The position numbers were made by a program, and so were the translations under genes. A stretch of 49,425 nucleotides of DNA from Intoshia linei (lineage: Eukaryota > Animalia > Orthonectida), in the NCBI GenBank assembly GCA_001642005.1, contig LWCA01000128.1, positions 1-49,425 of the forward strand, in the 5' to 3' direction. The notes under the pieces are model-generated. The model searched no databases. It saw only the letters and a list, made by a program, of their open reading frames with translations, and had not been told where the DNA came from. This document shows, one piece after another, positions 16,701 to 48,837 of the stretch. Positions within the stretch are counted from its first letter, which is position 1; each line of letters starts with the position of its first letter.

Positions 16701-17447
16701 AAATCATAATAAGTAAAATCAAATTCCAAAATGTGTTATTTATTCCATCATGTGAATATTTTGAGCTTATTGGAAACAATATGCTAAAAATGTAAATAAA
16801 TGTATATGTATTAACCATCACATTTAACATTTTCAATTTAAATATAGAATTCTCTCTAATTCGACAATATTGTGACTTGGCATTTTTGACGCCTGGTCCC
16901 TTTTTTAATAAAATTTAGATAACACTTTTCCCAAAAATGTGAGTAACGTATAAGGTTGGCTAATAACAAAACTGCAGTGATAGCGACAATACGAATGTAC
17001 ATTTGAGGATAAATTTGAATATCATAACTACAGTGTATTCATGTTTTGGTAGTAAATTTAAAATATAAATCAAGACCGTTGAAGAGGTCCGCTGGAAGCA
17101 ATGACACAACGTATCGTTTGTCAAAATTTTTAATAATTACATTACCAACAGACGAAAATAAAGACCAGTCTATTATACATTGAAAATCTAATTTAATGTA
17201 CATGTAATGTTTATTATTAATAATATTGTAATGTAATTATATACAAAATCACCAGATGTATAACACGAAATCAACAATAAAGTATTGCTTAATATTTAAA
17301 ATACAGTTAGGTAAATAAATAAAATAGACAAAATGATTTAAATAACCTCAACACCACAGCCACAATTATGCACCATATAATCATTGGAACAGTAAAGTCA
17401 TCAGAAGAAATGTTCCATCTCCTTTTAAACAAAATTAACATGGACAT
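13733..17447 (-). CDS. sn1-specific diacylglycerol lipase (DAGL beta-like length, Lipase_3), multi-exon
   Basis: N-terminus MSMLILFKRRWNISSDDFTVP. TM exon with ISYRGAIYE. FRNDNIVFGDILAGL, LATYGW, ISIRGTMS, nucleophile motif VIVGHSLGAATA (~14420) and FYLPGKILYI. Confidence 0.9.
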
Positions 17448-18049: not shown

Positions 18050-19248
18050 CAGGGTGGTCCAAAGCATGGCACGAGGGACGCATGCGACCCGCCACATTGA
18101 TTAGTAATATATTTTGAAAACCATTAACTTCAGAAATATCATAATTACCACATTAAATAGCATTAATTTAAATTTTTTAGAAATAATTACATCTTTCTGT
18201 ACTAATTATTCTCAACTTCTTACTTTTTGTACTTCACGATAATAATTTTAACTTTTTGGACCTTTTGTACGATTATCCTAACTTATATACAACTCTATAT
18301 TTGTCTGTGTGTTATCGTTTATTTCAATAAGTAAGATAAATTTCAATCTCAGAAACTTACAGCTTATCGGTCAAAAACCCCAATTATTTTTTTTTTGAAA
18401 ATCAAACGAGTTCTACAATTTACAAAAATATACACTCTCATACAGATTTAATATCATAAATTTTAATTTAAAAAAAAATATATATTCAGGACCAAAAACC
18501 CAAATCACCCTTTTTTAAAAACATTAATTTTCCTATAATTTTAAAGAAAATTACAATTTATAGTTATCTCCAGTTAATACACACAAAAAACATACGGGAT
18601 TTTTTTAATTTATTTTCAAAAGACTTTATGATATTTTTTGGATAAAATTTTTTACCATATTTCAAAGGGTTTTTTGATAATCTTTTTTTTATCAGCGAGG
18701 TTTTTAGTGAAATTTTTTTGTACGAAATTTTAAAAAGGGTTTTTGGGAAATTTTTTCAAAAAAACCGAATAGTCCCAGAATTTAAAAAAAGATCACATTT
18801 AATACTGCTTTTTCCAGTTAAAATATATAAAAAGTTTCAATGTTAAGTTAAGATTTCATGTTCAAAAAAAAAATTTACTGTTTCCCCTTTTTTGTTGGAA
18901 ATTAATTATGACAATTTGATATAATTAATAGTCCAAGAATTTAAAAATAAAAATTGTCTTGACACGTTTGGGAATCATTACTTTAAAGTATTGGTCATAG
19001 TTATAGTGAATAGTGCAATTTTTATGTAATATTTTATTTTTTGGTAGAAGTGTAAAAGTTAAACTCTGCAGAGCTAGGTGCTGTTTGTACGAAGTACAAA
19101 ACAGTGTCATAAAAACTGTAAATTTTATTTTGTATAATAAAAATTTAAAATAAATATATTAAAACCAAAAATTCTTAAAATTTTTTTGTCCGGCCCACCA
19201 TTTTATATAACAATCCGGCCCGCTATCACAGAAAGTTGCCCATCTCTG
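18050..19248. mobile_element. hAT (Charlie-like) MITE interrupted by a Helitron copy
   Basis: Ends cagggtggtccaaag and aaagttgcccatctctg, with subterminal (c)ggccc(g/a)c motifs. Flanks acctaaaa/acttagac may be a degenerate TSD. Confidence 0.55.
18276..19110 (+). mobile_element. Non-autonomous Helitron copy (diverged subfamily)
   Basis: 5' A|TCctaacttatatac...tgtctgtgtgttatcgtttatttcaata. 3' gcagagctaggtg plus hairpin ctgtttgtac-gaa-gtacaaaacag. No clean terminal CTAG. Confidence 0.7.
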
Positions 19249-19863
19249 ACTTAGACTAAGTAATACTTACTCTTAGTATGCATTAAATATTACGGCTTGT
19301 ATTTTCCATTTTACTGTATCAATTTTTATGAATATTCTGATATGAATAATTTGGATTTGGGTGAATATTGTTGGGATACTCATCTGAGATAAAAACAATG
19401 AAAACGTGACATTTGGATAATTTGTAAATTAAATTTTATTGACTGATATTTAGTACTGTTAGAAATGATTTAAAATTAAAATTATCGCGATTTAATGTAC
19501 TTAGACAAAAGTACATGAGTACCTTATCATAAGGCAACATGTTTAGTGGGGCTCAATACACAATTTGAGCCTTATATTTTGCTATATAGGAGTGTTTTTA
19601 AATTTAAATTCTTGATTTTTAAAATATTTATTGTTTTGATATAGATGATATTTGCTGCTGAAATTATTTGCATTTCAGTTTTATCCAAAAAAATACGGCT
19701 CGTAGTGTCTAAGGGTTAGTTAAACATGAAATAAACTAAATGTAACTTGCATTTAAGTACGACATCCAAGTTACACCCAACCACTCAATGTGCACTTTAT
19801 TTTAGCATTGTTAATTAGAAACATAAATTAGATTGTATCCTTTTTTAATATTTAAAACCACAA

Positions 19864-22800
19864 ATGGATGACCTTATAAAATTAATGAATGAAGTTCAGA
19901 ATATAATGAACATTGTAGGTGGAGAAGTGATAAATTTACCTCAAATTGTAGTCATTGGAATTCAGGTTTGTCTCTATAACATAAATTTACGACCACATTC
20001 AGAGTTCTGGAAAATCTTCAGTATTAGAAGGTATTGTGGGCAAAAGTTTTCTACCACGCGGTACTGGAGTCGTCACTCGAAGGCCACTCGTTTTACAGTT
20101 AATTAAAATTTCAGATGAACCTGAATCTAGAATAATCAATGGAGGTTTTTTAATTTTTTAATTTTTAATTAAATTTAAATGTTCGTACTACATTATATCA
20201 TTAGATGTTGTAAATGAAGAAGAATTTGGTATTTTTTTGCATAAACCAGAAACAATATTCAGTAATTTCGATGATATAAAAAGTGAAATAATTTCATGTA
20301 CTGAGGAAATTGCTGGAACAAACAAAGGCATAGTTGATGAACCAATAACACTTAAAATATTTTCAAAAAATGTTGTGAATTTAACCTTGGTTGATTTACC
20401 AGGTATTACCAAAATACCCATTGGTGACCAACCTGCTGACATTGAAGTTCAATTACGTCAAATGTGTTTACGATATATAAAAAACAAAAAATCTATTATA
20501 CTGGCAGTTACAGCCGCAAATACTGATATAGCTACCTCTGATGCTATTAAATTTGCCAAAGAAGTAGACCCTGATGGTATTTTTCACTTTTCATTTTATT
20601 TTTTTAGTGTTGATATGCACAATCATTTATAGTTCAGTATCTGGTCTATCCCGGGCATATCAAAATAATTTACATTAAACAAACATCAGTGTTTGTAAAA
20701 ATATAACTACCTAAATGCAATAGGGTTAATATATTATAAATTTGTAGTTAATTTTATATCTTTTTTAATTTGAATCGAAAAAGGTGTTGTAAATGTAGTC
20801 TGTTCATTTATTATTCTTTTATTTTAGGATACAGAACAATTGTAGTCGTTTCTAAGTTGGATTTAATGGACCAAGGAACTGACGCTTTGGATGTACTTAC
20901 AGGAAAAATAATTCCTGTGAAATTAGGCATTATTGGTGTTGTAAATCGAAGTCAATCTGATATTAATTGTAGCAAGGTTTACTATATTTTACTCCACAAT
21001 GTAGAGTCCACATTTTTAATCTTAATCCTAAAATTTGAAAAATATTGGTTGATAATTATCAAAATATTAAAAGTTATTTTTCACCGGGAATGCGTAGATT
21101 TCTGGGCTTGAAATTTTGTGTCTGTATCAACTGGAATAAGCTGTATGAGAATAACTTTTTTTAATTCAAAGACCGTTAATTATTTCAAATTTTTTGTATT
21201 AATAAATTCCAAATTAGTTAGTGTAGTTACAAAATAAAAAAATGAAAACCAGGTGCTTTTTTTACAGTGAAGGATAACTTTGTGAAATTAATTTTTTGTG
21301 TGTTTAAACTGGATATAACTGTATCAACTGTATTTTTTTAAATTATAAAACTATTTTCATTTTATAAAAAAAGATAATCTGAGGTTTTGATCATGAAAAT
21401 CTACTTTTTAGGGTTTGCCATTTATGATTTTAAACACTATCCCATAATTTACGTTGTATAAACTTTTAGGACTTCTTTTATTTTTAAAAAAAAGGTAATT
21501 TTGGGTTTTGGTTTTGGTAGTGAAGGTAGCAGCTTTTGGAATTGAAATTGATCATAATGTTGATGATTTTAAAATTTTTATCTAATTGTGCTTTTTTTAT
21601 AATTCTAGGGCTCGTTTATTTTTAAAAAAAGGATAATTTGAGTTTTTGACCTTGAAGGACTCAATTTCTAAAAATGACATTTGCAATAAAATCTAATAGA
21701 CGAAAGTTAGTATTGTGAAAATTCTAAGTATCTTATGTTTTAGACTTATAAACTGGAAGAAACAAATAATTAAATAAAAAGACATACATTTTTAACTAAA
21801 TTTTTTTATATAACACTGGTCAACAAAATGAAAACTTTTTTCGAAGATCTGTATGATGTGTATATCATTAAATAGCTGAAATTTTTGTGATATACACTGT
21901 AGAGTCTACATGATATTTTACTTTTATATTTTTCAAATCGCTTACATGTAGTATAAATAATGTATAAAGTGATATTTTTTATTTGTAAGGTTAATTTTTC
22001 ACGCAGAAAAATCTTATGATATTTGAATACACGATAACTTAATAATAAATAAATTATAGGTACCCAATAATTAACTGACCACTGACTCTTTAACAGATCG
22101 AAAATTTTGATCAGGTTATAGTAGACATTTAAAGGGGTATATTCAACTATCTAAATTCAAGAAAGTAAGGGGAGTTGAGTTTTACAAATTCCATATTGTT
22201 ATAACAGTTTTTTCAGAACATAATGATGTTTTATCGCAAATTTCAATTATAGAAATTGAGTCCTTCAAGGTTAAAAACCCCAATTGTCATTTGTTTTTAA
22301 ATTCAAAACCGTCCTAGAAATATAAGACCTAGAACCCGTCTTCAGTATATATATCGTTCGCACTCGAATCATTAATTTAATTTTTAATGGATTGATTTCT
22401 AAATTTTCAATTTTCCCCTATGAGGGAATTACCCTTGTTGAGAACCACTGCTCAAAACGGAAAGCAACATACACATCTAGATCTATATAGTTATTTTTTA
22501 ATAATTCATATTCACTAAAGTCGGGGAAGTTATGTGAAAAAAGTTCAAAATGTTTGTTATCTCGAAGTATATTTATTAATTAAATATAATTTTAATTGAG
22601 TTGAAATATATTAAAAAATTAATTAATAATAATAAAATTAAATTAAATAATGATTATTTTATTTTTAGTCTGTGGAAGATGGACTCAAGAAGGAGGAAAT
22701 GTTTCTTAAAAAAAAATATCCACGTTTAGGCGGTTTGTGTGGATCTGTATATCTTTCAAAATACTTAAATAAGGTATAATGATTAATTTTTTTATAATTT

Positions 22801-25800
22801 GTAACGTTTAGATTTTAATGAAACACATAAAAACCCATTTACCCGATTTAAGACTTCGTATGTCAACTATGGTCACTTATTATACAAATTCTCTAAAAAA
22901 TTATACCGCGGAAATTTTGGACGAGGTTAAAAATGTAAAACTTGATAATTTTTATTTAGCCACAATTTATTTTGGAAATTATCTCAAAATTGTGCTTTAA
23001 ATTTACTAAAACATTAAATGGATTATCCGATAATTTAGATATAACTGAATTGTACAATTTTATATATTGCATTTAAAATTATTTACCAAGATGCGGTGGT
23101 GCACGGATTTGTTACATTTTTCATAATATTTTTGCTAAAACCATTATGAACATTAATGTTTTGCAGGATCTATCAAAGAAAAATATATTGACTGCTTTAC
23201 ACAATGCTACGGTATTTTATCTATTGTATATAATTATGATTTGTAGTTTGTTTTGTAATATTAATCATTTATTACAGGGCCCTAGACCTTCGCTGTATAT
23301 ACCAGAAGCGACCTTTGAATTACTAGCTAAAAAACAAATAATGTTACTAAAAAAACCATCTTTATCTTGCACATCTTTAGTTTTCAATGAAATCAATAGA
23401 ATCATGAAACTATGCATGTTACAGGTTTATAAAATTTTTACTTTTAGTATAAGATTTAGGTAAACATTAACCAATATCCCAATTTGGAGAAAAAAACATT
23501 ACATGTCTTTGATAAACTCTTAAATGAACGTTTACCTATTACAGAAACAATGGTTTCCTTTAAATTAATATTTTATTTCATTTTTTATGATTTAGGTTAA
23601 TAATTTAATTGAAATTGAATTAGCTTATATAAATACACAACATCCCGATTTTGAAAATGTATTACATTCTTCTCCGGAACCTCAAGTCATTTTTTACATT
23701 ACTAGTATTAATATTATTTAGTCTAAAAAACAACCTGATTTTGATGATTTTGAATCTGTTAATAGTGAACACACAAAGGAGTCATTCGTTTCAAATCTTC
23801 AAGATGTTTAAAAAATTTATTATTTAGTTGATATTTTTTAGTTTCCACTTAAAATGAACCTTAGTAAAAAACAGAATCAAGTAATATTAATAGGTATTAT
23901 TTAATTATTATTATTATTTTATGCAGAATAATCAATATTTGTATTGGACTTGATAAACACTATTTTGTAAAGTGATTCATATACCCATCACGCATACCCA
24001 TTGCTAATGTGATACTGTAACAGACTTTTCAATATTATTTAATTTATAAATTTCGCGGACCACACTGGTTAAAATTTTTGTCTATCCTACTAATTTTTTA
24101 ATGTTACAAAATTACTTGGGGAAAATTACATTTAATTAAAATAAAAAAAATAAAAATATAATTAAATTAAAATTAATTTCATGTGTTTCATTAATGGGAC
24201 ACTAGATTTAATACAATATTGTGACTAAGTTATATCATGCTTTATTATTATAAAGATGAAATTTGATAAATTAAAATCTCCGTTTCATGGAATTGACATA
24301 TTTTTATTTTATTAATTAATTATATATATAATTAACGGTTGAATGTAGCTGAAAAAACATGTAAAAAAATTCATGTTTTGAAATAATTAATGTGCGGACA
24401 TTAAACGGTTAACTGTTTTTATCAAAATATGAATTTTTGGGATTTTTTCTAAATTGGAACCACAAAAAATTACACTGGGGTTACTTTGCATTAAAATATT
24501 AAATATTACGTTTAATAAAAACTTTTATCGATTTTGATTGTATTTTTTTAGAAAAATTGATTTCATCATATTTCAATGTGGTCCGAAAAAATATTATGGA
24601 TACTGTTCCCAAATGTATCATGCACTTTTTAGTCAACTTTGTGGAGAATAATTTACAAAGTTTACTTGTTAGAGAAATTTATGGGTAAATTTAATATAGA
24701 ATTAGAAATGACAAAATTTTAAAGATAGTGAATAATATGACCTTTTTTATAGTACTTAAGAGTGGTCGATCATGCGGGCCACAACACAAAATGTTGCACC
24801 CGTTGAATAATTATAATAAAATTTAATTTTGGAATTTTATAGACTTTTTTAAAATTAATAAAACCAAAGATAAAAATTGTCTACATATTTATAATTGTAA
24901 AAATTAAATGTGTAGAGATTTTCAGATTTATAAATACTAAAAATTAAAAATAGTGCTTTAACCAAAAGATGTGTTTAAAGCAGGGGTTCTCAAACTTTTT
25001 GAGCTATCGCCCCCTAGATTAAAAAAATTTAATTTTTTCAAGATTATCACCTTTTTAAAATATTTAATATGGATTATTTATTAATTATAATTAAAATTAA
25101 GCAATTTTTTTTTAATCGAATTGTGTCACATATGTATTATATTAATTTATGATATAGTAAAGGTCTTATTTTTGAACAGAATTTTAGAAATTTAGCAAAT
25201 TTTTTGTTTGACTTTTACGAATAATAATATTTTGATTTGAAATTGCAGAAATGACTTTACGCATTTTTATAAAAAAACTTTGTTGTCTTTTTTCTTAACA
25301 TAGACATTTTAAGCGCTTGGATTTAATACTTTAATACAAATTGAAGTTTCATTTCATGAATGCAATACGTATGTAATATATAAAGAAACTATAATATCAA
25401 TTAAAAAATATGTTTATTCTGAAAATAAATCGCCCCCAATATTCAAAAATCGCCTCAAATGGCGATATCGCCCAAGTTGAGGATCTGTTATTAAAATCGA
25501 CAACCGCTGTTATAAAAATAAAAACATTTTATCTGTTCACTGTTCAGGTCCATTTTTTTGAGTCTATCTAATAATAACATTCAATAATGTAGCGTGGTAA
25601 AAGTGTTTCAAAATGTTTTATAACGATGCGCAACGTCATATCACCCAAACTACTTCTACACAGGTCTGGACTTTACAGTTTAAATTTAACGCACAAAATC
25701 GTAGATTGTCAAAAATACAATTTTTTAATAAAGTGCTCAACTTAAAAAATAGGTCCCATTTTACAAAAATTTATTTGAGGACCTTCAAAAAGATATTTCG

Positions 25801-27712: not shown

Positions 27713-30700
27713 ATGGATAACCTTATAAAAGCCATTGGTAAACGCAATTCTGCTTTTCAATGTCTTTGTTGTCGTTCATCAGACGGTTTACCTCAAAAAT
27801 GCTCATGGAACTGTCGATGGATGGCTGTAGGAGGACATAAAAGTACAATTGTAGGAGTTGGGCTTGTATATATTTAGATCATTTTGTCAAGATTGATGAA
27901 AAGACTGTTTTAAAACTTTATGATGAAAACGAATATAAAAACCTTGTATCACTTCGCAAAGTTTCGCTGTCTAAATTTATCCCATATGTATACTCAGTCA
28001 AGACGTATCACTCAAAAAGTTTTATTACGATTATATTCATGATTTCGGTTTAGAATACATAGTGATGCAGGATATGACATTTGGAATATCCTCTCCTTCG
28101 ATAATTGATATCAAATTAGGATGCATAACCTTTTCTCGTAGTGATCTTAAGAAACATTATCGAGAGAAACCTAGCCGCAGAGTAATTTTTGTGTATTATA
28201 AAAATACATTAACATAGGATTTGTTTCAAAAAATAAGGAAACACAACGACGAACGATATTTTACCACTACCGAATTAAAAAATAAAGAAATTTCTAAATA
28301 TAGATATCTCAATTGGCGCGATATCACCACCACCACTAGAAAATTTAGCATTCGTATCAGCGCCATGAAGGTTTAATGACTATTATATCACCGTTTATTT
28401 CAACTTTTAGATTGGTGATATTGTAGAAAATAATTTTAATCATGTACATAGTCTCGAGGAAATGTCCCAAATTCTCAATATTTTTATACAAAATTCTCAA
28501 GAATTAAAGGTAATCCATTTAACCCTATTTACTATTATCTAATTTTACTTTTTTACTGTTTATTTACTTGTTGAGATTAATTGTAAATAATACATTTCGT
28601 AAATTTTGCTAAAGGTAATATTCACACGAATTTACAAAACAGAATAACGTTAAAACCCAATCATTTCTAGATGTACGTTTGCACTTAACGGTTCAAAGCT
28701 TTGAACTGTACGGATCCCCATTCATAAAATTCTTTAAAAAAGCAGTGTTCTTTTGATTAGAACTAAAAATTCTTAGCCTACACGAATTTAATACCATCCA
28801 GTTGGTAAACAATGATTGATTATAATTATTCTAATTCAGGGTAATCAACATTTTTTAGGCTAACGCCCCTATAAAATTATATTGTATGCATGGATAAATA
28901 ATACTATTTACTCAACACAAATTAAAATTTAATAGATACTTTTTCTAGGGTGTACACTGCATAGATTTTAATGTATTCTAAATTTTTTTATATCCGGTTT
29001 CAAATTGGTTTGATTTTATCACAGATCTCCTCTATTAATAATGTTTAATCGGTTTCTCTTATTAGTGAGTATATTTTCCACATTTTATATATCAATTTAG
29101 CATGGAATCTTTGCATACCACTTTACCCGTTTATCATAAGAATAACATACCAGTTTACCCACATACCTGTTTTTTTCATAGCCCCTTTAACTATTTTATA
29201 TTATTCGTGGTTCTACCTTACTTATATAAAGTAATTTAACTAAAAAGAGTATCTGTCCGTATCCATATATTTGGAACGTAAGTTTTAGGAGTTTTAAAAC
29301 CAATTTATAATACAGATTTTCGCGAGTTAGGTTTGATGGAATTTTTTTTTGAAATAAATAAATAAGTTGTAGATTTTTTTAAATCATACACTCTGATACA
29401 AATTTTAAAATCATGAGCATTATCATATGTCAACCTCAACAATTTATATCTTCACGACCAAAGGTCAAATATGGGGAAAACTAATACTAATAATGTAGTC
29501 ATAGAATTTTTGAAAATATCTCATTCAATACAGATTTTCCAGTTAACCGCTTACTGTCCGCACAGAAACCAGGTGATTTTGGAAAAATTTGAATGGAATT
29601 ATTTTGCTAGCAATATTGTTATAAAAAATTTCATACGCAATAATTGTAGTTGTTCCATAAATAGAAGAATGGGCCCAAATTAACTTATATATTTTTTAAA
29701 ACACATACATTTACATTATTTATTATGATATTTGATAAAACCTATGATAATCTTTAACTGAACATCGTGTCTGTTTTTAATGACTTATCAAATAATGATT
29801 AAATCTATAAAAGCAGAGTTCTTCAGGCGGTTTTGAACTAGATCTCTAGTCGGTATTTTTCATAGGAAATTTTTCTTAACAAGGTATATTGCAAGAGTTG
29901 ATCGAAGTTGTTAGGTGCGATTTATTTGTATTAATTCTTAAATGAATACGTATAATATACCGTAGGGACAGATTAAATGGACCTTATTTTGAAAAAGGTG
30001 GTTCGTTTTTAGCAACTGTTTTATGTTGTTTTTATATTTTTGTATATGTGTAATTACTAATTATAGATGTAGTATACAATTGAATCGTTACAAATATATT
30101 TTGATGATAATGATTTAATTCATTTTAAAATTTGTATGTACATGTTAATCAGACGCGCTTACATATAGAGTCCACGTTGATAAATATTATGATCGAAATG
30201 ATAATTTTGAAAAAAACATTCTTTCTTTTAAATTTTTTTCAGATTTTCGAGAGCACATAGTCCATTTTTTGCCTGGAAATCCACAGGATTCTATAATTAT
30301 ACATATCAATAATTCTTATAAGAGCAAAATTTTGACTGCTGAAGAGATTCTCACCTAGATTTCGTTAATATTAACTACATTATATATTAAGATTTAATCC
30401 ATATCCTTAGTAAGGATTTGGATTCCTTACTTATATGATATGCTACACAATTTTTGTTTGTGTGTGTGTTCCACTTTATTTAAATAACTACCCGTCTTGG
30501 AATTTTATAAAGTCCACATTTCAATTACAGTTTTTTCCGGAGGTGTTCGCAAAATAAATGTCAACCTCACATCTTACTAGTCAAAAACCACAATTGTCCT
30601 ATTTTTTGAAAATCAAACGAGTTGGAAAATTTAAACAAATATATACGCTGATACGGATTTTAAAATCATAAACATTATCATAATTTTAAATGCTGATGCG

Positions 30701-33700
30701 GATTTTAAAATCATAAACATTATCATAAATTTAAATTTAAAAAAATACACTGATGCGGATTTTAAAATCATAAACATTATCATAAATTTAAATTTAAAAA
30801 AATTATATTTTCAAAGCCAAAACCAAAAATTACCCTTCTTTTTTTAATGAAAACAGTCCTAGAATTTAAAAAAATTTACAGGTGGTACAGTTGTATCCTG
30901 TTAACACACACCAATTCAATCCGAATAAGTGACGACTTCACGGTCAAAAAAGCATTTAGTATTCATATATTTTTTTTCCGAAATGTTTTATTAACAAAAA
31001 CAACATATTCAATTACTTCTTTGGCCTCGATTACTACAAATATTTAATTAAGATTTTGGATAAGATTGATAGTAAGTGTAAGTGATTATGTCCTTTCCTC
31101 TGGTGCATATTGAGACCCAACGAAGCGATTGGCAATACCATGTTTGAATGCCATAGAAACAGATCATATACATTATGTATATACGTTAATGTGATTACTT
31201 CCTGATTCGATGCAATTATAGATAATGATGTATCTCCTACATTAAGGGTATCAACCTTTTCTCTAGGTAATATGACGTTACTGATTCGGAGAATTTCCTT
31301 AACTTTCTCGATTGTACGGGATTTATAATTGGCAGTATCTGCATTTGTATCCTTCTTGATACGTAAATGAGATATATAATATAGAAGAATTCCATATGTA
31401 TATTTGGTGGAATCTGGACAATCTATGGAATTTTCTAATGTATGATTGGCCTCTTTTATTTTTATAAAATCTCCTACACCAGCCTGATCACCGGCCTTAC
31501 AAACAGTTACTGTCCCCCAATTGACATATTTTATGAATGTTCCGAAGTTTTGCTCTGCCAGAAGATACATGTAGCTGACCACTATTAATGGATCAACTTG
31601 TTCTCCTGTCCAAATTTTGTTGTAAAGGTAATTTCGTAATGTTTCAACTGTGTTATTTGTATACTGTAGATCCATTGTAATTTTTTCTTTATAAAGATTC
31701 TCATTATATGGAACTGCTTGAGAATCAAGAGAAGGAACAATATAATTCACACAACTTTCTTTATCAAATACTTATTTTCCATTTAGCTCTTTGTATGACG
31801 GAATAATTCCTTGTTTTAAATAGGCCCTCATTCGTTTATCAGCATCTCGCTGAAATTGTTTACTTACCCCTATCTCCTTGATAGCTAAATTTTTTTTTAA
31901 CATGTAGCTTCAGAAATCCAATGTCATAAGCATTGAATAGATTATTTCAAGCACACAATGACAATCTTAATGAGATGGCAGAGTAGACTTCTTCGTTTGT
32001 AATTTTCATGTCATTCGCCAATTCAGTAAATTTGGCTAGGCTGATCTCATCCAAGTTAACATGTTCTGTATCTGGATTTATGGTCTCCAGTACACATGTC
32101 CTCACGGCTAGTAAAATCATTTGGTAGTATGAGGTGCCTCCGAGTCTGGTTCCTCCAAGAGTGTGAACATACTTGAAGTACATCCTCGTTGCAATGTACA
32201 TGTAACTATTTGGACATGAAATGGAGGAGTATGCTGATTTGGGAACTAAGTTAAGTGATCTGTGATACCAAACTAGACTAGTTGAGTCATAGTGTTTCGC
32301 GTCGAGTGAAAACATTTTGTGTAATTCAGGTTTTATAAACTTAGTGAACATCATTGATATTATACGAGCGTGATCGTCTTCATGGTACATCGCCATGTAT
32401 TCGGTCCATAGATTGAGAGTGAAAGTAAAAGAATTATGTGAAACCCTGGGTATAAAACAAATGGCAATATACAAGTCGAACGAGCCAACAGAAAGTTAAA
32501 TAAGAGAACATCTCATAGGGATGAGGAACAGTAATTCCTAAAAGTGGTTTTCCCCAGATCTAGTTCTGAGATTGTCGGCGTAAGTGGATGAACAGTCCTA
32601 CATTTGGTATACTTGTCCATTGTTATATTCAAGATTCTTTATTATTGACGCCTCTGATTTGAGTAATCTTAGCTACACTACTACTGAGAATTTCCGTGAA
32701 AAGGCAAGTCGAATCGTTTTGGCGTTCTGTATTATACTATAAATGGAGTCTGTGTACCCATATAAGATTGATCCGAAAAAACTAGAAATAAATCTAGGAA
32801 AAAGGGTTTAATCCTATATAAATAATTAAAAAAAGAATTCACGGACCTATGAGTCATTTCTATGCTGTCTTTAATTAATACATTCTTTATTGTTGGTGTC
32901 CTACTAATTATTTTCTTTTTAACTGATTCCTTAATGATGCTTTAAACTGAGACTGGGTTTATTAAGTTAATAGTGACTGGATTCTCTATTAATTTAGATA
33001 TATCTGCTGGTTCAAAGGTTCTAAGATTGAACCTTAAGGAGTTTAATATGAGTGTTTTAAAATGTATATTTTTGGAAAAGTCATATATCCCTTTTTAAAA
33101 AGATAGTGATTCAGTTATTTCATCGGGAATTATCGAGTTAGAGTCATTCCTCCTATTACTTCAATTCCTGGGTCAATAAATACAATTATCATCCATAAAT
33201 GATTTTCTTTTTCGGTATTCGGATATGCACTCCAATGTTTTAGGTACACAAAACTAGGTCCATCAAAGATGGATTATAAAACATTATTTTCCTAAGAGAA
33301 GAGCTTACATATAATAGATAAAGATCTATTGATCTTTGGTATGAAGATGAGTGTTGAACATTGGTGAGAGCAGTCGCCCCAATTGATGAAATTGTGTTGG
33401 AGATATTTATTATCATATCATTAGAGAAATATCCTACTCTTGCGACCCTTTTAGATTCCGGACATAATATTCTGCCCCTAAATAAAGAATATTTCCCATA
33501 AATCAAAAAATTAGTAGAATACCAAGTTTCATCAGCCTTTATCAATAAGCCAAATTTACAAGCCCCATTTTGTATGGATTGCATAATAGTCTTTACGTCT
33601 AGTTTTATGGACTTGGTTTTTCTATCATCTGAGTTGTTATCCAATTGACTTGGATTATTGTAGGTTAAACAAATAATTTGATTGTCCCCTTGGGCTAATA

Positions 33701-34810
33701 TTTTGCTACATACATTACGTTAAGATGTTTCATATTCAATTATTAATAAAGATACAATTTTCTATCCTTTTTGTCTAAGTCCTTCCAAGCCGCCGAGTTG
33801 TCCATTCCATGATACGAATTTTTCTTTTTTTGTTGTTCACATTGAGGTTCGAGTCTATGTTGATTAAGTCTAATCGATCGAAATAATATACTAGATACTA
33901 TACTAGATAATGGGTACTATGAATTTGTTCTTAAAATTCTCTACATAAATGTTAATAATAAAATTAAGTGGGTATAATTCACTTTAAATTAATAGGTAAA
34001 GTGAAGTCACCGGTCCATGATGACAAAAGTTTGGGAACCAATTTTTTAACGATTGGGAATAGTAAATAAATTTTCTAGCATTTTTATGTAAGATTTTATT
34101 ATTTAATTTATTTTTTGGTGGAATTGAAATAGTTCGTCCTCGGCAGAGCTACGTGTTGTTTATACCAAGTACATAATAGTCTAATATATATAGTCATAAT
34201 ATTACGTATATAATAAGTATCAACATAATTTCCATATTTAGAATATTTATGAAGAAAAAATAAGCGAATTAGTCCAATTAGCACCTGATTGTTCGTATTT
34301 AAATGATAAAGAGGTATTTCCATCATATCCAATATTTACATTAATTACAGCAGTTTCCCGATCCACACATCTATATATAGAAAATTATCAAAATTCTAAA
34401 AGATTTTTTTAATATATAAGAAATACAAACCAGTATTTTCTAAATTTGATTTAAAAGTGTGGATAATGAATTATATTATATATAGGACTTGCATTTTATG
34501 ACCTTGTTTATTTGACATTTAGATAATAGGATGCTCTTTACTATTGGTGCATAATCCAATTAACTCAGGTCAAGTACAAGCCAGCTTAATAGATTTTGCA
34601 AAATTAAATAATATATCAAAAAATGAAAGGCTTATAAATTTCGAAGTAAATGCACCACCCAACTACAATGTAACCGTAGACGATTCAAAAATCAACGTAC
34701 AAGATAGTGACTATCAAATATTAAAATTGTATCAGGATACACATAAAAACGGATTTTTTATGGGTCTCGATAATGTTATTAACCTTGTTAAATCAATAAA
34801 AATACAATAA
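27713..34810 (+). CDS. Inositol-1,4,5-trisphosphate 3-kinase (IPK family, ITPK-like), with a 5.7 kb intron at 28510-34241
   Basis: WMAVGGH; PSIIDIKLG (PxxxDxKxG); IP-binding lobe DLFQKI...SKYRYLNWRDITTTT. Exon 34242-34313 (NIYEEKISEL...NDKE) joins in phase to 34523-34810 (IIGCSLLLVH...SLIDFAK...GFFMGLDNVI). Confidence 0.85.
30424..31005 (+). mobile_element. Helitron 5' arm abutting the viral insert
   Basis: Highly similar to 41477-~42090, including the same internal triplication of a ~50-60 bp unit (30646-30802 vs 41710-41868). Homology ends abruptly at ~31005. Confidence 0.85.
31034..31903 (-). pseudogene. Endogenous rhabdovirus-like nucleoprotein, N-terminal half (copy N2)
   Basis: TVETLRNYLYNKIWTGEQVDPLIVVSYMY and VNWGTVTVCKAGDQAGVGDFIKIK align with vesiculovirus N (SLSDLRGYVYQGLKSGNVSIIHVNSYLY; SSFGINIGKAGDTIGIFDLVSLK). 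YDLFL aligns with VDMFF. 238-codon open frame, which continues upstream to an ATG at 31903 past one TAA (31772-31774). Confidence 0.85.
31947..32474 (-). pseudogene. Endogenous rhabdovirus-like nucleoprotein, C-terminal half (copy N1)
   Basis: SLVWYHRSLNLVPKSAYSSISCP matches the conserved rhabdoviral N motif SYMPYLIDFGLSxKSPYSSVKNP. Intronless, with visibly higher GC than the host intron. Confidence 0.8.
32495..33895 (-). pseudogene. Endogenous rhabdovirus-like L protein (RdRp core through the GxTVPHP region), with stops and frameshifts
   Basis: WNGQLGGLEG LRQKG* (motif B, ~33762-33810); KILAQGDNQII (GDN at 33681-33689); FGLLIKADETWYSTNFLIYGK; PDEITESLSF; KLIENPVTIN; FPRFIS; IQNAKTIR; CSSTYADNLRTRS.GKPLLGITVPHPYEM (~32510-32595). 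All are collinear with vesiculovirus L. Confidence 0.95.
34020..34184 (+). mobile_element. Degenerate Helitron 3' arm/terminus downstream of the viral insert
   Basis: cctcggcagagctacgtgttgtttataccaagtacataatagtCTAA|t is homologous to the termini at 43056-43106 and 19065-19110. The preceding ~120 bp aligns with 18960-19050. Confidence 0.65.
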
Positions 34811-35055
34811 TCTTATTCAAATCTTGTATATTTAAAAATAAATATATATTGAAATTAAACTTTCATTTTTTATACAAAACTTTTGTAACAAAAGAATGCA
34901 ACATTGACTAACAGCAACAAAATAAAATGAATTGACAAATCAATTGAATTGAATCAATTCTACAAATACTAATGTAACTGCAAAGTTGATAAAATTGCCT
35001 TAGTAATTGTAAATAATCGATTACTATAGTCTTAATATAACTTTATTCATCCAAA

Positions 35056-38000
35056 ATGTCAAAAAGACCTTTCACAAATTATGTACAACCAGGTTTAACG
35101 CGTGTAAGCTCTCCAAAACATTTTAAATCTAACATTGACCAATTTAAAAGTGTAAGTACATTTTATTTTAAAAAAAATAAACTTTCAGGATTCACCGTGT
35201 AAAACTATAGTTGTCGACAATGTTAAAGATGTAACTGAAAAAAATATACTTGGAGCATTTAAAAAATTTGGAAGAATGGCGTAAATTTGTCGAGTTCAAT
35301 ATTTCATTATATTTAGACGAGTCCTACTTTTGCCACATTTTTTTCGTGCTTTAGTAGAATTTGAAGTAAATTTAAATTTGTTTTAATTGATGTAAAATTT
35401 GTTTAGGAATTGAATTTTGCAATTTCTGCTGTAAATAAATGCAAGGTACGCGAATAACATTAAAATTTAATTATATTTAATTTTTTCTAGGAAGATCCCT
35501 TAAAAGTGTGTACAAACTTTGTAAAAGTTTATTTTTCGCGATATCCAACAATTTCAGAATATATGTAATACTTACCAAATTCGATTAGTGTATTAAGATT
35601 TAGATAATTTTATTTATGTAGATCTAATGAAGGAACCGTAAGTGTGCTTAAAATTGATATTGACAAACCAATTTATCCCATTACTACTGTACGATTTTTT
35701 TATTTTAGTATTTTAAATATTTAGAATGTAATGCGGAAAATTTTGGCACCATATGATACCAATTTAAAAATTATTATAGTTTCAAATTCTCAAGTTTTAG
35801 TAGAGTATGTATTTTTTATATTTTTGTAAATCTTTATTAGATTTTCCTCTGTCGTGGGGGCTAACAATGCAAAACGATATTTAGATGGCGAAGATATTTA
35901 TTCTGGATGTTGTACTCTGCGAATTTCTCGCGCTGAGGTAATATTCACACAAAAGGAAAATAAATCCTAATAATAATACCAAAAACAAACAATTACGAAT
36001 TAAAAAATTTAGTTTTCAAATTTAAACATCAGAGAAAATAGTGAATTGGAATACGCTTATAATTTAAACAGTGGTAACGAAATTAACACAATAATACAAA
36101 ATAAAAAATTAAAATTAATCTAATCAAAAATAAACCAAGAAATGCATAATAGTATTATGAGTGCAACGTTAATTTTTTTATTTAGATTATCACAATGATT
36201 CTTTCATAAATCCACATTTTGGCAGTTCCTCCAATTCAGTAATTGATTATGATTTTTTTATTTATTTTTTTTAGCGTAATATTGTGCAACCTATCCCTAA
36301 TGCCGTTCAGCAATATGATGAAAATGGAATCGAGCCTGGAAATGTGATTATCGTTGTTGGTTTGACTGATAAATTTAATTGCAATAAATTGTTCAATTTA
36401 CTTTGCCAATACGGAAATGTTATTAAGGTTTACATGTAATTTTTTGGATCACATTTATTCCCTAGATAAAAATTTTGAAAACTAGACAACGATCCGCCAT
36501 GATCCAAATGGGAAACCGTGTTGGGTGCGAACGAGCCATTAATTGTTTGAATGGCTGTAGTGTTTTTGGAACTAAACTACAATTTACGTAGATCTATTGT
36601 CAATATAATATATATTTTGTTTAGATTTTCTAAATTGGACTTTTTAGTCTTTCCTCGTCAAAAAGCTCATCCGCTGGCCGATGATACTCCTTCATTTGAG
36701 TCTTTTGCTGGTTCAAAATTGAATAGATTCAGTACACTTGAAGATGCAAAAAGACACGGTAATATTTTTATTTATTATAGTTTATACGCTAGGGTAGAGG
36801 TGTTTAGAGAGGTGATCGTTAAATAGTTTTGGCATAATAGGTTCTGCATACATTTTTTACAATAAAATAAATTTTTTTCTGGCAATGCGTAGATTTCAGG
36901 AGTTGAAATTTTGTATTTATATGAACTGGCATAAGCTGTATCGGAATAATCTTTTTTTTAACTGTTAACGGACTGTTAATTATTTCAAATTTTTTTATTT
37001 TATTACAATTGTTATCAAATATTAATAAATGAATACCAACGTGCTTCTTGACCGTGAAGGCGTCACTTCGTCAGATTGAATTTTTTTTAAAAAGGTTAAT
37101 CTAAGTTTTTGATAGTCAAAATGGACTTTTTTGGGTTTTATATTTATGATAATTTTAAAATCTTTATCAGATTATGTATTTTTTATAATTCTAGGACTCG
37201 TTTGATTCTTAAAAAAAAAAGGATAATTGGGGTTTAGACCTTGAAAGGCTAAATTTTTGAAAATGAAATTTGCGATAAAACATTACACTCACAAATGGGT
37301 ACTTTTAAAACTTTACACCTTTACTTTTTTAAATAAATGGTGAAAAACAAAAAAATAGACATTTATTTTTAACTAAATTAATTTATATAAGTTAGGGTTT
37401 AAAAGTGTAGATCAGAGGTTAGGAAGCATTTACTGTTCCAAGACAGCGCTAACATCCCAAAAAATTTAATAAAATACAGCAGTGCGTCTCATGGGGGTGA
37501 CTGGTCACCCTGTCGTGAAAAATTTTATACCTACCAATTGAACGATAATTGATATCAATATAGAAACGGCATTACACTAACAAAATAAAGCAATTGAGCA
37601 GTGACAAGCACACATAACAAACAAAACATAAGCCAGATTAATTTTAGGTTAAATAACAGCGTGCAAAATGAACGAAATTGTGTATTATTATAAGCCAAAA
37701 TTATACTATACTATTTTAGTCACAAATATTAATTAAAATTAAATCGGTAGGCATAAAATTTTTCACGACGTGTTGATGTTGAAAAATTTTCGACTTACCA
37801 AAAAAAAATTTTTTAAACATAATTCACTCTGAACTGGTTAAAAAAAAACCCTTAAAAATTTTACAGTGATTTATTTTATAAATTTAGTGGGCTTTAATTT
37901 TATTTTAATTTAATATTTGTGACTAAAATAGTATAGTATAATTTTGGCTTATAATAATATACAATTTCGTTCATTTTGCACGCTGTTATTTAACCTAAAA

Positions 38001-39299
38001 TTAATCTGGCTTAAAATACACTGCTCAATTACTTTGTTTTGTTAGTGTAATGTTGTTTTTATATTGATATTGCTAAAATTTTTCACGACAACCCCAAGAG
38101 GTGAATAATTTTATTAGTGGGTGAATACGAAAATTTTATATGATTCGAATGATACATTTTTAGCACATTTTATTCAATTTAGTAAAATTTTACTAACCCT
38201 TAAGGAAAAAATCTTCTTTTATCAATATTTTTTTGAAAAATTCTATTTAACCAAAAATTAATATTTTTAAAATAATTCAAATTGTTCAGAAGTCGCACTT
38301 TTCCCACTTTTGTTGTAGATAATAAGGCGGGGTTCCAATGCTTTTTTCACGGCGAACAATAATACATTATAAAATTTAACTCTGACCATTAAAAGTAAAT
38401 TGCTAGGAAACATTAAAAAAATGTTTAATAAAAACGTAATAAATTGGCTTGCATAATAAATGTTAATAATAATATCAGTAAAAATTATTTCGCAGACCTG
38501 TAAATTTTTTTATGGATCAGCATTGAGAAGACGCTACAACAGTAATATTAATCATTATTAATATAAAAAACTTTATTTGATTGATTTTCTGTCTTTAATG
38601 AATTTACAATGTTGTTTTGTTCATTTTATTTTTTTAGTTCAGTTATACCTCATTTATTCTGGTTTTACGAAATTTATTTTGAAGTTTATTTATAGCTTTT
38701 GAAATTAATTATGAGGAATGTTAACTACCCTGTTTAATATTTACCAAATATTGTTTTCCCGTACCCGTTGCACAGCTCTATGTAATACAAGTATATTAAC
38801 AATAACGATTTTGATTAACCAATTTGTAGTGGGTGTGTATTACTGCAAAAATATATGTTAATAAATATATTATATTTACATGTTTATTATTGATTTAATT
38901 TAGAAATTAATCGCCCAAATAGGACTTTGCACTTTTATAATATTCCTACTTCATTCGACCAAGAAAAAATTAACAAAGTAAAACTAATTTATTTTTCATT
39001 TTAATTTGTAGACGTTTAACGATATGTCCTTAAAAGAACCAAATAAAATACAATTTTACGGAAACAGTGAGTTTATTATATTAATGAATGAATTATAATT
39101 AGGTTCGAAAAGTAAACACGGTTTAATGGAATGGGTTAAATTTGATGATGCTATTGATGCTATTTTGATAGCTCAGCATCACTCTATTTCTGATTCAGGT
39201 AAATTCGATTCATTCATTTTACATTTTTTAGCTAGCAAGTATCCATACATTTTAAAAATGAATTTTGCTTCTTGTCTGATTAGACCTACAAATAGATAA
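35056..39299 (+). CDS. HNRNPL: hnRNP L-like 4-RRM protein, paralog 1, multi-exon
   Basis: PIYPIT, LDGEDIYSGCCTLRI, FNCNKLFNLLCQYGNV, FAGSKLNRFST, PNRTLHFYNIP, HGLMEW, YPYILKMNFA. Stop at 39297-39299. Confidence 0.88.
36860..37396 (-). mobile_element. Helitron family copy in hnRNP L intron
   Basis: Collinear with 21070-21810 and 3015-3600. Ends in ttatataagttaggg, the reverse complement of the 5' end. Confidence 0.7.
37484..38103. repeat. Long inverted repeat / foldback-type element (arms ~37510-37745 and ~37895-38090)
   Basis: aagccagattaattttaggttaaataacagcgtgcaaaatgaacgaaattg...gtcacaaatatta is present as a near-perfect reverse complement about 150 bp downstream. Confidence 0.85.
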
Positions 39300-40239
39300 G
39301 GTGGATTAACTAACGCATTTTAATAAATATTTTGTATTACTTATTATTATTATCTTAATATCTCTTGAAAATCCGACTTAGTAACAAGTAGGGTTGAATT
39401 TTTATCAATTATATTGGATAAACCAATTTCAATATATTTGTAAATATACAGTACATACCCTGTTCTACGCTGCAAATAAAGATTTTCCTAAAAAATATTG
39501 AAAAATAGTTTATTATCTGAATTCTCATTGGTTGATATATCAAAATTAACAACAAATATGAATATTACACGAATTATCTTTATTTTTTGAGTTAAACAGA
39601 GAAAGACGTCGAACAGAGGTGTAACACTTGTAAGACTTACAAATTCAATTAAAAAAATATAACAATGTCCACTTAAAAGTTTTTCTAATCTTAATTTAAT
39701 AGAAACTAAAATTTTTAATAATAAAACGAATACGCATTATACCTAATATAACTTAAATACACTATAAATCAACTATGTATTCCTATTCTAATAATTAAAA
39801 ATATGTAAAACAATATTTAATTGTAATTATTTATCTATTCGAAATTAAATTAGAATAGTCTAGATTCCTGTCTTCCATAATAATATTATAATACAGTGTA
39901 ATCCATAAATTTGTCTTAAAATCCAAAAATATAGATGAATTTATCAATTAAAAAGGATTAACTTCTGATACACATCGAGAATTAGTTCTTTTTTTAAATT
40001 TGAGATATTTCTGGAGCGATCTTTTAAAATATTTAGCTTTGAGAGGATCGCTCAGCTACCTCATTTGTCAAAAGTACGTCCAATCTCGGTTGAGACGTAT
40101 ATTTGCGTTTATAAGAAAAAAAATGCATTTTTTTGCCCTTTTAAGAGACAAATTTAGTTAAACGTACATTTTTGATTGATGTATTATTGATACACATTTA
40201 TTTCATACATCAAACCAAATATTTACAACATTCTTCCAA

Positions 40240-41476: not shown

Positions 41477-43106
41477 TCCTAACCTATATAAATTGCGACG
41501 CGATTTTTGTTTGTGTATGTGTTTGTTCAACTTTATTTAAATAACTATCCGTCTTAGAATTTTTTAAAGACCACATTTCAATTACAGTTTTTTCCGGGAC
41601 GTATAATAAGATATATTTCAACCTCCAAATTTTACATTTTAAGGGTCAAAAACCCCTGTTGTTCCTATTTTGAAAAGCAAACAAGTTGGAGAATTTAAAA
41701 CAATATATACGCTGATGCGAATTTTAAAATCATAAACATTATCATAAATTTAAATTGCTGATGCGGATTTTAAAATCATAAACATTATCATAAATTTAAA
41801 TTTAAAAAAATACACTGATGCGGATTTTAAAATCATAAACATTATCATAAATTTAAATTTAAAAAAATTATATTTTCATTGCTAAAACCACAAATTCCCT
41901 TCCTTTTTTTTGAAAAAATCCCTAGAATTTCAAAAAATTTACAGGTGGTAGAGTTGTATCATGTTAACACACAAGTACAGTTGTATCCTGTTAACACACA
42001 TAAAAAATTTCAATCCGAATAAGTGACGACCTTCACAGTCAAAAAAGCATTTAATTCATATATTTTTTTCTGAAATATTTTATTAAAACAAAAAATGTGA
42101 ATAATTTACAGGTCCGAAAATTAAAAAAAAAAATTATTCTGATAGAACTTATTCCAGTTGATATAAATTGTTCGAAAATTTAAAAAAATAATTATTCTGA
42201 TAGAGCTTATTCCAGTTGATATAAATACAAAATTTCAACCCCAAGAAATCAACCATTCATAGTGAAAAATAATTTTTAATATATTATCAACCAATATTTT
42301 TCAAATATTTTGATTTAAAATTAAAAATGTAAATATTGATCCTACAATTTCAAAAAAAATGTGTATTGTACGTCTACACATTTCCAATTATAATAAAAAT
42401 CTATATAATTCATTCCTTCGGTATTTTTTTCATTGCTACGCAATTTTTAAATTTTTATTTTCCAAACATTTTTTATAAACTTTAAATTTTAATACTACAG
42501 CAACGAATTTATAAAATTAAATTTATATTAACTGAAACGTTATGTTTTTTATTGATAATTTTTACAAATTTAACATAAAATGGTAAAAAAAAAAGTAACA
42601 TTTACAAGAAAAAAGGCCAAAAGTATGGTAAAATTTTTAACATCAATCATTTTTATATTACAATCCTTTGCAATAATGGTAAAATTCGACTAAAGATTCA
42701 TATAATTATTTATACACAATTTGTATTTTTAAGTATTTATTAAATTAATACTGAATATATGTCATCAGTGATGACATATATGATGATGATAACTCATCAC
42801 ATTGAAAATGACAAAATATGTTTTTATAATTTTATTTTTTTTGGAATTTATGACAATTTTTAGGATTGAACTGTTTTTACTTTATTTTTAATATGATACA
42901 CACATTCTGTCTAATAAATTAAAAAAATGGGATAATAATTGTTTATAAATTTTTTACGCAAATGTTAACAAAAAAAAGGATTGATAATAGTTAATAGTAG
43001 AATTTTTAAGTTAGATTTTCAACGTGAAATTTTTTTGGTTTAATAAAAAGAGTGCCCTCGGCAGAGCTAGGTGCTGTTTGTACGTAGTATAAAACTGTCA
43101 AGCTAG
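41477..43106 (+). mobile_element. Apparently full-length non-autonomous Helitron (~1.63 kb)
   Basis: Inserted at A|T: 5' a|TCctaacctatata followed by a GT-rich microsatellite-like tract; 3' imperfect hairpin then aagCTAG|t. No TSD. Several internal tandem duplications. Confidence 0.8.
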
Positions 43107-43602
43107 TTCATTATAAACATTCATATGTATTTACAATCTCCAATAAAGAAATATATCTATTCATAACTATATTTAATAATTTTAATTTTTAAAATAATTC
43201 CGTTAAATACGACGTTTCTATAGAAAAACATCCTGTTTAGCGGAATTCCTAAATTTTTGAGTTCCAAAAATTCCGTTAAATAGGACTTAGACTGTACTAT
43301 AAACCAGTGGTGGGCAAACTACAACCCGCGAGATCATGGTTCATACTTATGTTTACATTCAAATTTTGAAATTGATTGTTTACATCAGTGATTCTTAACC
43401 TGGGCGGTAGGACCCCCTTGGGGTGTATTTATACTCACATAGCAGTTTAAATATAAACACTAGCTTAATTTTTCCTACCTCAACAAAAAACTCCAAAATT
43501 TCTACTTTTTGAATCACCCTACTATACATACATTTATTTACAATTTACATTTAATTGTTAAAAACCAATACATTAATGTATACTTTAGTGAACATAAAGT
43601 CT

Positions 43603-47213: not shown

Positions 47214-47319
47214 TTTGAATGAAAAAATTCAAAATATTAATTCAAATATCCAACAATAAAGTTGGTTTAGTGATAATTTAAGTTGCCGAAGTAATTCTAT
47301 TAACTTTGTGTCCTTTAGA

Positions 47320-48133
47320 CCAGTGGTGATGCTGATTTTGAAACATTGTTATTACATACCCAAGTACGATGGTTGTCAAAAGGAAAAGCATTAAAACGAG
47401 CATTTATACTTCATAATGAAATTCTACTTTTTTTGGAAAAATCAAATCATTATTTGCAGGAAAATTTTCAAGATGCTATTTGGCTATCTTCTCTGGCTTT
47501 TCTGGTTGATATTTTTGAATTATTAAATTTCTTAAATTTATCTCTCCAGGGAAAAGGCATTACAGTAATTGATTGCAATGAAAAATTAAAAGTTTTCCAG
47601 ATAAAAGTTCAATTATGGATAAAGAAAATGGATCAACGTAATTTTGCAATGTTTTCTGTATTTAATTCATATCTAGATGACGAGCATAGTTTTTACAACA
47701 GAAAGTCCTTTGGATAAAGAAATTAAAGAACATCTTCTCACTCTTAAAAATCATTCACTACTTCCCAACTATTAATGATACAGATGTATATAATTCCCTT
47801 ATAAGAAATCCATTTATATTTGATTTTGAACAGTTACCAGTGAAGGAGTTAGTATTCCAGGAAAAATTCATATAATTAATTAATGATGGCTCTGCCAAAA
47901 TAACATTTCCTAAAAGTACGATAACTGAATTTTGGATAGCTATGGCACAATCATATCCAAAATTTTCTAAAATGATTTTCAAAATACAAATAAAAACAAA
48001 ATCTAGAAACAGACTATATGTTAGTGATGATTTGAGATGTGCTTTATCCAAAACAGAACCAAGAATAGTTGAATTGTCAAAAATCAAACAATTTATTAGT
48101 TTATTATCAATTTATTTTCAAACATTAGTTTAA
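47320..48133 (+). pseudogene. hAT (Buster/Charlie, SCAND3/ZBED8-like) transposase relic, C-terminal part
   Basis: LLHTQVRWLSKGKALKR, LAFLVDIFELLNFLNLSLQG, IKTKSRNRL..DDLRCALSKTEPRI, with frameshifts. A cagtggt TIR-like start lies at ~47320. Confidence 0.9.
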
Positions 48134-48626: not shown

Positions 48627-48837
48627 CTAGCTTGGCAGTTTCGTACTACGTACAAACAGCACCTAGCTATGCCGAGGGCACTCTTTTATTATACCAAAAA
48701 AATAAATTCACGTTGAAAATCTAACTTAAAAATTCACTATTCACTATTATCGTTTTTTTTGTTTTGTTAACATTTGCGTAAAGAATTTAAAAACAATTAT
48801 TATCCAATTTTTTTAATTTATTAGACAGAATATGTAT
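48627..48837 (-). mobile_element. Helitron 3' end (minus strand), facing a plus-strand internal fragment at ~48300-48411
   Basis: Reverse complement of 42895-43106, including the hairpin and CTAG|T. 48300-48411 matches 42852-42963. Confidence 0.8.

Follow-up and report, generated by a model that had tools for sequence, protein, structure and literature searches.

A probable decayed and rearranged rhabdovirus fossil within a kinase intron of the orthonectid Intoshia linei

The window considered here, that is, the whole 49,425-nucleotide (nt) contig LWCA01000128.1 of the orthonectid Intoshia linei, contains an inositol-phosphate kinase gene of seven exons, and the largest intron of this gene holds, between two host repeats, a block of viral character. 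On its minus strand this block (31010..33900) carries the middle of a rhabdovirus large polymerase protein (L), followed by two pieces of a rhabdovirus nucleoprotein (N), and we consider it highly probable that it is a decayed, rearranged rhabdovirus fossil. A first-pass annotation of the window had already named a rhabdovirus-like L and N element at this place; what the present analysis adds is the rearranged order of the pieces, their likely transcription and splicing, a spliced antisense transcript running across the locus and further L copies in the same species. The features are collected in Table 1, in which X1 to X5 denote public sequencing runs.

Table 1. Viral pieces, introns, host exons and repeats at the locus, with the evidence for each
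Feature	Coordinates	Strand	Evidence and remarks
Rhabdovirus N, N-terminal half	31037..31771 (reaching ~31000)	-	Rhabdo_ncap 12-194; 245 codons stop-free, the longest such frame of the window
Rhabdovirus N, C-terminal half	31772..32495	-	Rhabdo_ncap 237-294; 182 stop-free codons (31950-32495), then a broken tail
Middle of rhabdovirus L (~residues 665-1130)	32500..33894	-	Polymerase core with GDN motif, start of capping domain
45-nt GT-AG intron in the L piece	33478..33522	-	Joint in X3 and X4 (one study); retained in the X1 DNA contig
50-nt GT-AG intron in the L piece, weak support	33706..33755	-	One X3 contig, depth 2.8, short side 30 letters
Exon of spliced antisense host transcript	34206..34370	-	Joints or loose ends in X2-X5; GT-AG minus-strand ends
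Inositol-phosphate kinase gene (IPK family), exons 1-5, introns 35-40 nt	27713..28509	+	Pfam IPK 1-33, E 3.3e-5; spliced joints
Kinase intron carrying the element, 5732 nt	28510..34241	+	GT-AG ends; X2 spliced contig
Kinase gene, exons 6-7	34242..34810	+	Pfam IPK 126-166, E 0.006; joint 34311-34521 in three runs
Left flank, host repeat of high copy number containing tandem units of 45-57 nt	30424..31000	+	Ends abruptly where the element begins
Right flank, second host repeat	34029..34186	+	71-78% copies at 18966-19111, 42976-43089, 48643-48733

All six motifs on which the first-pass annotation had relied are found on the minus strand, four of them in L (GGLEGLRQKG at 33794, AQGDNQ at about 33695, GLLIKADET at 33551 and TVPHP at about 32532) and two in N (KSAYSS at 32240 and KAGD..G.D at 31498). 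They had been described as collinear with the viral proteins, which is correct for L and incorrect for N, whose C-terminal half precedes its N-terminal half, with L preceding both. A search with profiles of mononegaviral L and rhabdovirus N, proposed along with that annotation, gave significant matches. Three of the seven frames scanned with Pfam have a viral match: Mononeg_RNA_pol recognizes the frame 33243-33719 (E 7.4e-33), and Rhabdo_ncap recognizes both N pieces, the N-terminal one at E 2e-5 and the C-terminal one at E 1.1e-4, each slightly below the curated cut-off. When compared with solved structures, the L piece is nearest to entry 6ueb (E 2.9e-30), which we take to be rabies L; L of vesicular stomatitis virus (VSV) matches at E 2.6e-18, and other mononegaviruses (paramyxovirus and filovirus L) are far behind. 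A profile made from 75 natural rhabdovirus N proteins, run over all six frames of the window, matched the two N pieces (25.7 and 17.9 bits) and nothing else, and gave nothing over 0 bits in five shuffles; taken singly at E < 0.001, nine of the 75 proteins match the N-terminal half and four the C-terminal half, and VSV N matches the former at E 0.004. The structure predicted for the N-terminal half with 34 aligned viral N proteins as a guide (predicted local distance difference test score, pLDDT, 72) matches the N structures of VSV and rabies virus (Foldseek E 1e-7), and a search of the ESM Atlas with this half gave no usable match. The block also stands out by its GC content, as had been noted: 33.3% versus 26.0% in the rest of the window, where other 2.9-kb windows peak at 28.9%. 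Its edges, with L homology beginning at about 33894-33924 and the left host repeat stopping at about 31000, lie close to the limits of about 33900 and 31005 that had been proposed. Judged by sequence comparison, the source virus is a member of Rhabdoviridae, its L nesting with named rhabdoviruses in a clade described below and its N being of rhabdovirus type.

Rhabdovirus genomes have the order N-P-M-G-L, which is visible in the rhabdovirus genomes retrieved, and so both joins in the block, namely that of the middle of L with the middle of N and that of the end of N with its start, are non-viral. The minus-strand order (L middle, N C-terminal half, N N-terminal half) thus departs from the viral gene order and also from the order of the parts of N itself, and all three pieces share one polarity. 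No stop-start signal of the kind found at rhabdovirus gene junctions was found between the pieces, nor any internal repeat within the element. Open reading frames from 81 rhabdovirus contigs gave no match to P, M or G in the element, in a search that missed N too and is hence insensitive. The tail of the C-terminal half (31775-31945) is without profile support, and its length suggests that it stems from N as well. Comparing the tail of the N-terminal half with the head of the C-terminal half shows a 30-base resemblance, which 21 of 300 shuffles also attain; at the protein level the best match lies in a different register, and 6 of 500 shuffles attain it; a single circularly permuted N or two templates may underlie the arrangement, both being compatible with these results. 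As regards decay, the L piece is interrupted by eight stops and five frame changes (near 33843, 33235, 33131, 32811 and 32557), which leave six in-frame pieces. In length, the two N pieces exceed every other stop-free frame of the window; they carry 2-5 breaks versus 13 in L over similar lengths, a difference with P 0.003-0.04 in a post hoc comparison.

The stretch is present in five of the six listed public runs, which come from two studies. The contigs of X1 retain host introns; a single one of them, 3127 nt long, spans 30965-34108 and enters both flanking repeats, and others continue past the element and the right repeat as far as kinase exon 6; the right junction is crossed in X1, X2 and X3, and the left one in X1 and X4. 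An assembly chimera or contamination by a living virus could nonetheless be imagined, because the element lies between two repeats, which are error-prone for assemblers, and because the X1 contig over it is about twice as deep as its neighbours (20.8 versus 5-13) and is 17 bases shorter at 32709 than the window, X2 and X3. However, a negative-strand RNA virus has no DNA stage, and a living one could not bear 13 breaks in L; the element is found both in the DNA run and in the runs of the second study with 0-1 differing letters, and overlapping contigs reach kinase exon 6. We regard such an artefact as very unlikely. The doubled depth and the 17-base variant likely reflect a second near-identical copy or allele, although GC bias may also account for the depth, which is hence not used as a measure of copy number. 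Two variants are seen within the element, the absence of bases 32709-32725 from the X1 contig and, at low depth, an A for G at 33844 in X2 and X3. Homology to proteins of an RNA virus that has no DNA stage, junctions with host DNA and decay present in independent samples together make the block a non-retroviral endogenous viral element (nrEVE).

That this element sits within a kinase intron, as had been claimed, is borne out by an X2 contig that begins at 34240 and whose loose letters match 28478-28507, joining the exon end at 28509 to the exon start at 34242. The seven-exon model comprises 336 codons with no stop. Its six introns all have GT-AG ends; four measure 35-40 nt, and the other two 209 and 5732 nt. 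Its identification as an inositol trisphosphate (IP3) 3-kinase holds at the level of the IPK family, whose catalytic domain in Pfam is found in exons 3 and 7; the subfamily is likely, not firm. Over its full length, exon 4 aligns to its best match, IP3 3-kinase B, although weakly (E 0.29), exon 3 matches a multikinase best (E 0.0014, versus 0.03 for IP3K-A), and exon 7 had no kinase match in the sequence search.

Runs X2-X4 skip host introns at GT-AG ends and are thus treated as RNA-like, with contigs that show neither strand nor level. These contigs cover the element from about 31025 onward (elsewhere in the intron X3 and X4 have low cover or none, which is not counted as evidence), and it is likely that the element is transcribed and spliced by the host. 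The block had been called intronless, which is true of the DNA and not of the RNA-like contigs, since these skip a 45-nt GT-AG segment in L whose excision takes out 15 codons that solved viral L proteins keep. Both this cut and the second, 50-nt one are made by the public gene model of the element locus, A3Q56_01665 (OAF70620.1; P0145 in our set), which may rest on data similar to X3 and X4. The small L introns resemble 13 host introns in size and ends, and because the unspliced form is collinear with viral L, the host splice sites would have arisen, or been found, in viral sequence. Another conceivable source of the small introns is an intron-bearing rhabdovirus replicating in the nucleus. 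Rhabdo-like viruses with introns in L do exist, and splicing there makes the L frame whole (PMC10101049). In the present case, the unspliced DNA is the form that aligns gap-free with viral L, and the 45-nt cut loses codons instead of restoring a frame; inheritance from such a virus appears largely refuted by this alignment, and we hold it to be extremely unlikely.

The locus is also crossed by a spliced antisense host transcript. Upstream, its exon at 34206-34370 is joined to 34701 or 34784, and downstream the next joint lies at 30290 or 30354; some forms skip the entire element within a 3.9-kb intron, and the longest frame of these forms has 78 codons. The transcript starts beyond 34864 and overlaps the last kinase exons. 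Judging from its strand and from the adjoining cover, the element RNA would be an alternative form of this transcript. The antisense unit as a whole (30290-34900, minus strand) is apparently non-coding and makes use of two upstream donors and two downstream acceptors, and it begins close to the point, about 35050, from which the next gene runs in the opposite direction. Run X5 is listed as "DNA?" yet has minus-strand splice-type joints at 34370 and is probably RNA.

The element is not the sole L remnant of its kind in this species. A protein search of 1.84 billion representatives gave 327 matches at E <= 0.001, and four I. linei gene models are among the 150 that were listed; three further I. 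linei contigs (24251, 9947 and 954 nt) carry L pieces that are 75-90% identical to the element where aligned. The search, made with L, covered such copies as annotated proteins. The gene models concerned are P0146, P0153 and P0165, of which P0153 is fused to an unidentified N-terminal part of 100 amino acids (aa). Behind the L piece of P0146 lies an Integrase_H2C2 motif (E 1.8e-5; 25.2 bits, the cut-off being 25.5), the sole trace of a retrotransposon. No relative was found in 171 pattern matches among metagenome contigs, nor among 245 candidate proteins of 280-2000 aa compared with the L piece, a full L being longer than that.

When 429 candidates were compared with the element, 20 matched, the best named one being frog lyssa-like virus 1, with 46% identity across the core at E 1.6e-41, followed by triaenorhabdovirus 2. 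In a set of 134 L proteins, from which proteins below 1800 aa and with them the Intoshia copies were left out, none exceeds 42% identity to the element over 430 columns. A maximum-likelihood phylogeny of the L fragment was computed in IQ-TREE from 35 hand-picked rows out of 135 and about 450 decayed columns; it supersedes a FastTree tree of 97 rows with a poor root. Within Rhabdoviridae, the element falls in a clade starred in our tree (support 100/99), together with Alpharhabdovirinae (93/93 without the element) and two betaplatrhavirus-like groups, and its branch of 1.24 changes per site reflects decay in part. It would thus stand at the base of Alpharhabdovirinae plus the flatworm betaplatrhaviruses, with no supported branching order among these. 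A clade of the element with the lyssa-like viruses (Lyssavirus and Amplylivirus) is absent from the best tree, where the element lies outside Alpharhabdovirinae, and has a p-AU (approximately unbiased test) of 0.21; one with the betaplatrhaviruses is likewise absent from the best tree, with a p-AU of 0.19, so that the test rejects neither. The named betaplatrhaviruses split into two groups, with no support for a single clade. A clade with Alphaplatrhavirus, a group named after the first tree had been seen, was rejected (p-AU 0.0016). The full-length L proteins P0148 and P0150 from Logan belong to the same basal grade as the element. Rows L004-L019 are presumably lyssaviruses, and the subfamily name given to the clade of 17 rows is a probable one; genus labels follow PMC12451637 and PMC12282299.

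Thus frog lyssa-like virus 1 (Amplylivirus) and lyssavirus-like L proteins have the highest pairwise identity to the element but do not group with it in the best tree, whereas betaplatrhaviruses (triaenorhabdovirus 2, Himastelon rhabdovirus and Beihai dimarhabdovirus 1) share the starred clade at 38-39% identity. The latter are associated with flatworms (PMC12451637), so that their hosts, like Intoshia, are animal parasites, although of another phylum. These comparisons support the earlier suggestion that the source virus belonged to a divergent, possibly undescribed rhabdovirus lineage, and suggest that these worms once carried a deep-branching rhabdovirus of their own. A different origin, in which the animal parasitized by the worm, or another parasite sharing it, was infected by the virus and a DNA copy passed into the germ line of Intoshia, itself no true host, seems to us rather unlikely. 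Orthonectids live within host tissue, which speaks for such a route. It is also favoured by the nearest neighbours in the tree, which include viruses of parasitic flatworms, reportedly frequent host switchers (PMC9241645). Against it, the presence of viral pieces at at least four loci, possibly from more than one insertion event, fits a lasting infection better, and these pieces sit in DNA with Intoshia genes and intron sizes.

With regard to the surroundings, copies of the left repeat at 41477-42094 and 3136-3590 (83-85%) continue past the point where the left flank stops, and the summed contig depth of this repeat is in the thousands. Members of this non-coding, very high-copy family are found at 30424-31000, 41477-42427, 2847-3590, 18300-18840, 21010-21651 and 36864-37278, and those of the second repeat, which has a conserved GC-rich end, at 34029-34186, 18966-19111, 42897-43117 and 48616-48838. 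The order of left repeat followed by right repeat recurs in the same orientation at 18300-19111 and 41477-43117, and not after three minus-strand copies of the left repeat; this is a hint that the two flanks could be the ends of one non-autonomous element carrying the fossil. No Rfam family was found in 28000-36000. Other host genes recognized by Pfam in the window encode a SHIPPO-repeat protein, an MBT-repeat protein and a dynamin-like protein (1-3700, 8600-13500 and 19850-23500). From their motifs, we presume an hnRNP L/PTB-like RNA-binding gene at 35050-39300 (plus strand), a diacylglycerol-lipase-like gene at 13900-16900 (minus strand) and hAT-type transposase remnants at 47319-48133 (plus strand); the exons scanned gave no Pfam match corresponding to these three labels.

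The following history would most likely account for the locus. A rhabdovirus would have infected Intoshia, and a host retrotransposon would have copied its mRNAs into DNA, with template switching or recombination during reverse transcription producing the two non-viral joins. The joined fragments would have entered the germ line, here in an intron and a repeat, where they were harmless; repeated insertion or subsequent duplication would have brought such pieces to four loci or more, L presumably decaying without selection. The host would now transcribe the locus on both strands, viral-sense RNA coming from the antisense unit that begins past 34864 and being likely non-coding, and the spliceosome would cut the viral sequence at chance splice sites. 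Insertion by host retro-machinery is suggested by the biology of negative-strand viruses, by the integrations of Aedes, which are rearranged rhabdovirus sequences beside Ty3/gypsy elements (PMC5497376), and by the predicted integrase motif at the sister locus. No host function is needed to explain the element.

Several points weigh against this account. Of the two junctions, for which spanning reads had been proposed as a check, the right one is crossed well by public-run contigs, whereas the left one is bridged by 35-45 bases only, within a high-copy repeat, and no contig spans the entire 5.7-kb intron. Neither a reverse transcriptase nor a long terminal repeat (LTR) was found at the element locus, and no target-site duplication either, the longest shared word being 7 bases. 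The RNA nature of X2-X4 is deduced from their spliced host joints; no run containing the stretch is listed as RNA, a blank that speaks for neither side. Of 39 differences between the L copies, 6 strike conserved columns (conserved, that is, in 80% or more of 92 reference L proteins), as compared with 28 of 1051 in 34 virus pairs of like distance. This fits decay in the host after insertion, yet these control pairs lack independence and had a part in deciding which columns count as conserved. Finally, the N frames are less broken than L, for which plain uniform decay does not account; either a later arrival or selection may explain their better state.

Selection on the N pieces leads to a further interpretation, according to which N frames are selected and translated, or small RNAs arise from the locus by transcription of both its strands, and the outcome in either case is antiviral defence. 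The low number of breaks in the two longest stop-free frames of the window, significantly fewer than in L, would agree with this, as would the prediction that the N-terminal half still folds like the N-terminal lobe of a rhabdovirus N and the RNA-like contigs over the element, where both strands are likely transcribed (by the kinase pre-mRNA and by the antisense unit). A later insertion of the N pieces accounts for the asymmetry between N and L equally well, breaks are harder to detect in the weakly conserved N, and the fold model was steered by the viral alignment. Moreover, over 1 kb of broken L, rich in start codons, precedes the N frames, and no splicing event that would move them forward was observed. 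The literature search found no small-RNA, peptide or Piwi-pathway reports for I. linei. We consider a defence function unlikely, and the fuller proposal is improbable, too, namely that orthonectids have, or once had, a rhabdovirus lineage of their own, branching at the root of the group of rabies virus and the flatworm betaplatrhaviruses, and that I. linei has domesticated the N halves within the spliced antisense transcript, where they would be expressed and selected as frames or yield small RNAs from both strands; this would be an antiviral memory in a genome among the most reduced of any animal.

Rhabdovirus fossils are already a known kind of element, common in arthropods. In that group, nrEVEs often give rise to piRNAs, although an element need not do so to count as one. 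The decayed fossil favoured here resembles the non-retroviral integrated RNA virus sequences (NIRVS, or nrEVEs) of Aedes in that partial, rearranged rhabdovirus genes lie in host DNA, in several copies and near mobile elements (PMC5497376). In contrast to these, its host is an orthonectid, a group placed in Annelida (PMC12249979), it occupies an intron of an intact gene between non-coding repeats with no visible LTR element adjoining, and its viral-sense RNA is spliced. In the same species, a gene of a viral RNA-dependent RNA polymerase (RdRP) family was reported from the proteome in 2019 by Pinzon et al. (PMC6396948), with PF00946 among the profiles, and read as a horizontal transfer from a virus; the available text names no family or locus and describes no N, phylogeny, structure or splicing. 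The filter used there wanted a near-complete domain, which the 212-aa model of the element (Pfam 705-872 of 1068) would fail, and the seven supplement files available contain no "Intoshia" entry. The model A3Q56_01665 bears the automatic labels "hypothetical protein" and "RdRp catalytic domain-containing protein" and is not flagged as a viral fossil. Literature searches for Intoshia viruses, for viral elements of orthonectids, annelids or lophotrochozoans and for the four gene-model accessions found no description, in a coverage that largely leaves out subscription papers.

The element is a record, in principle datable, of a rhabdovirus that reached the germ line of an orthonectid, a group for which the literature search found no described virus, and its sequence can serve as a probe for finding the living virus. 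Its position close to the root of Alpharhabdovirinae, beside viruses of parasitic flatworms, brings another type of parasitic worm into the proposal that vertebrate rhabdoviruses stem from flatworm parasites (PMC9241645). It also appears to illustrate how viral coding sequence may turn into host introns, in a genome whose introns measure 35-57 nt, a process by which gene annotation is misled at this locus. If the N frames were indeed under selection, the locus would hold a domesticated viral gene in an extremely reduced animal.

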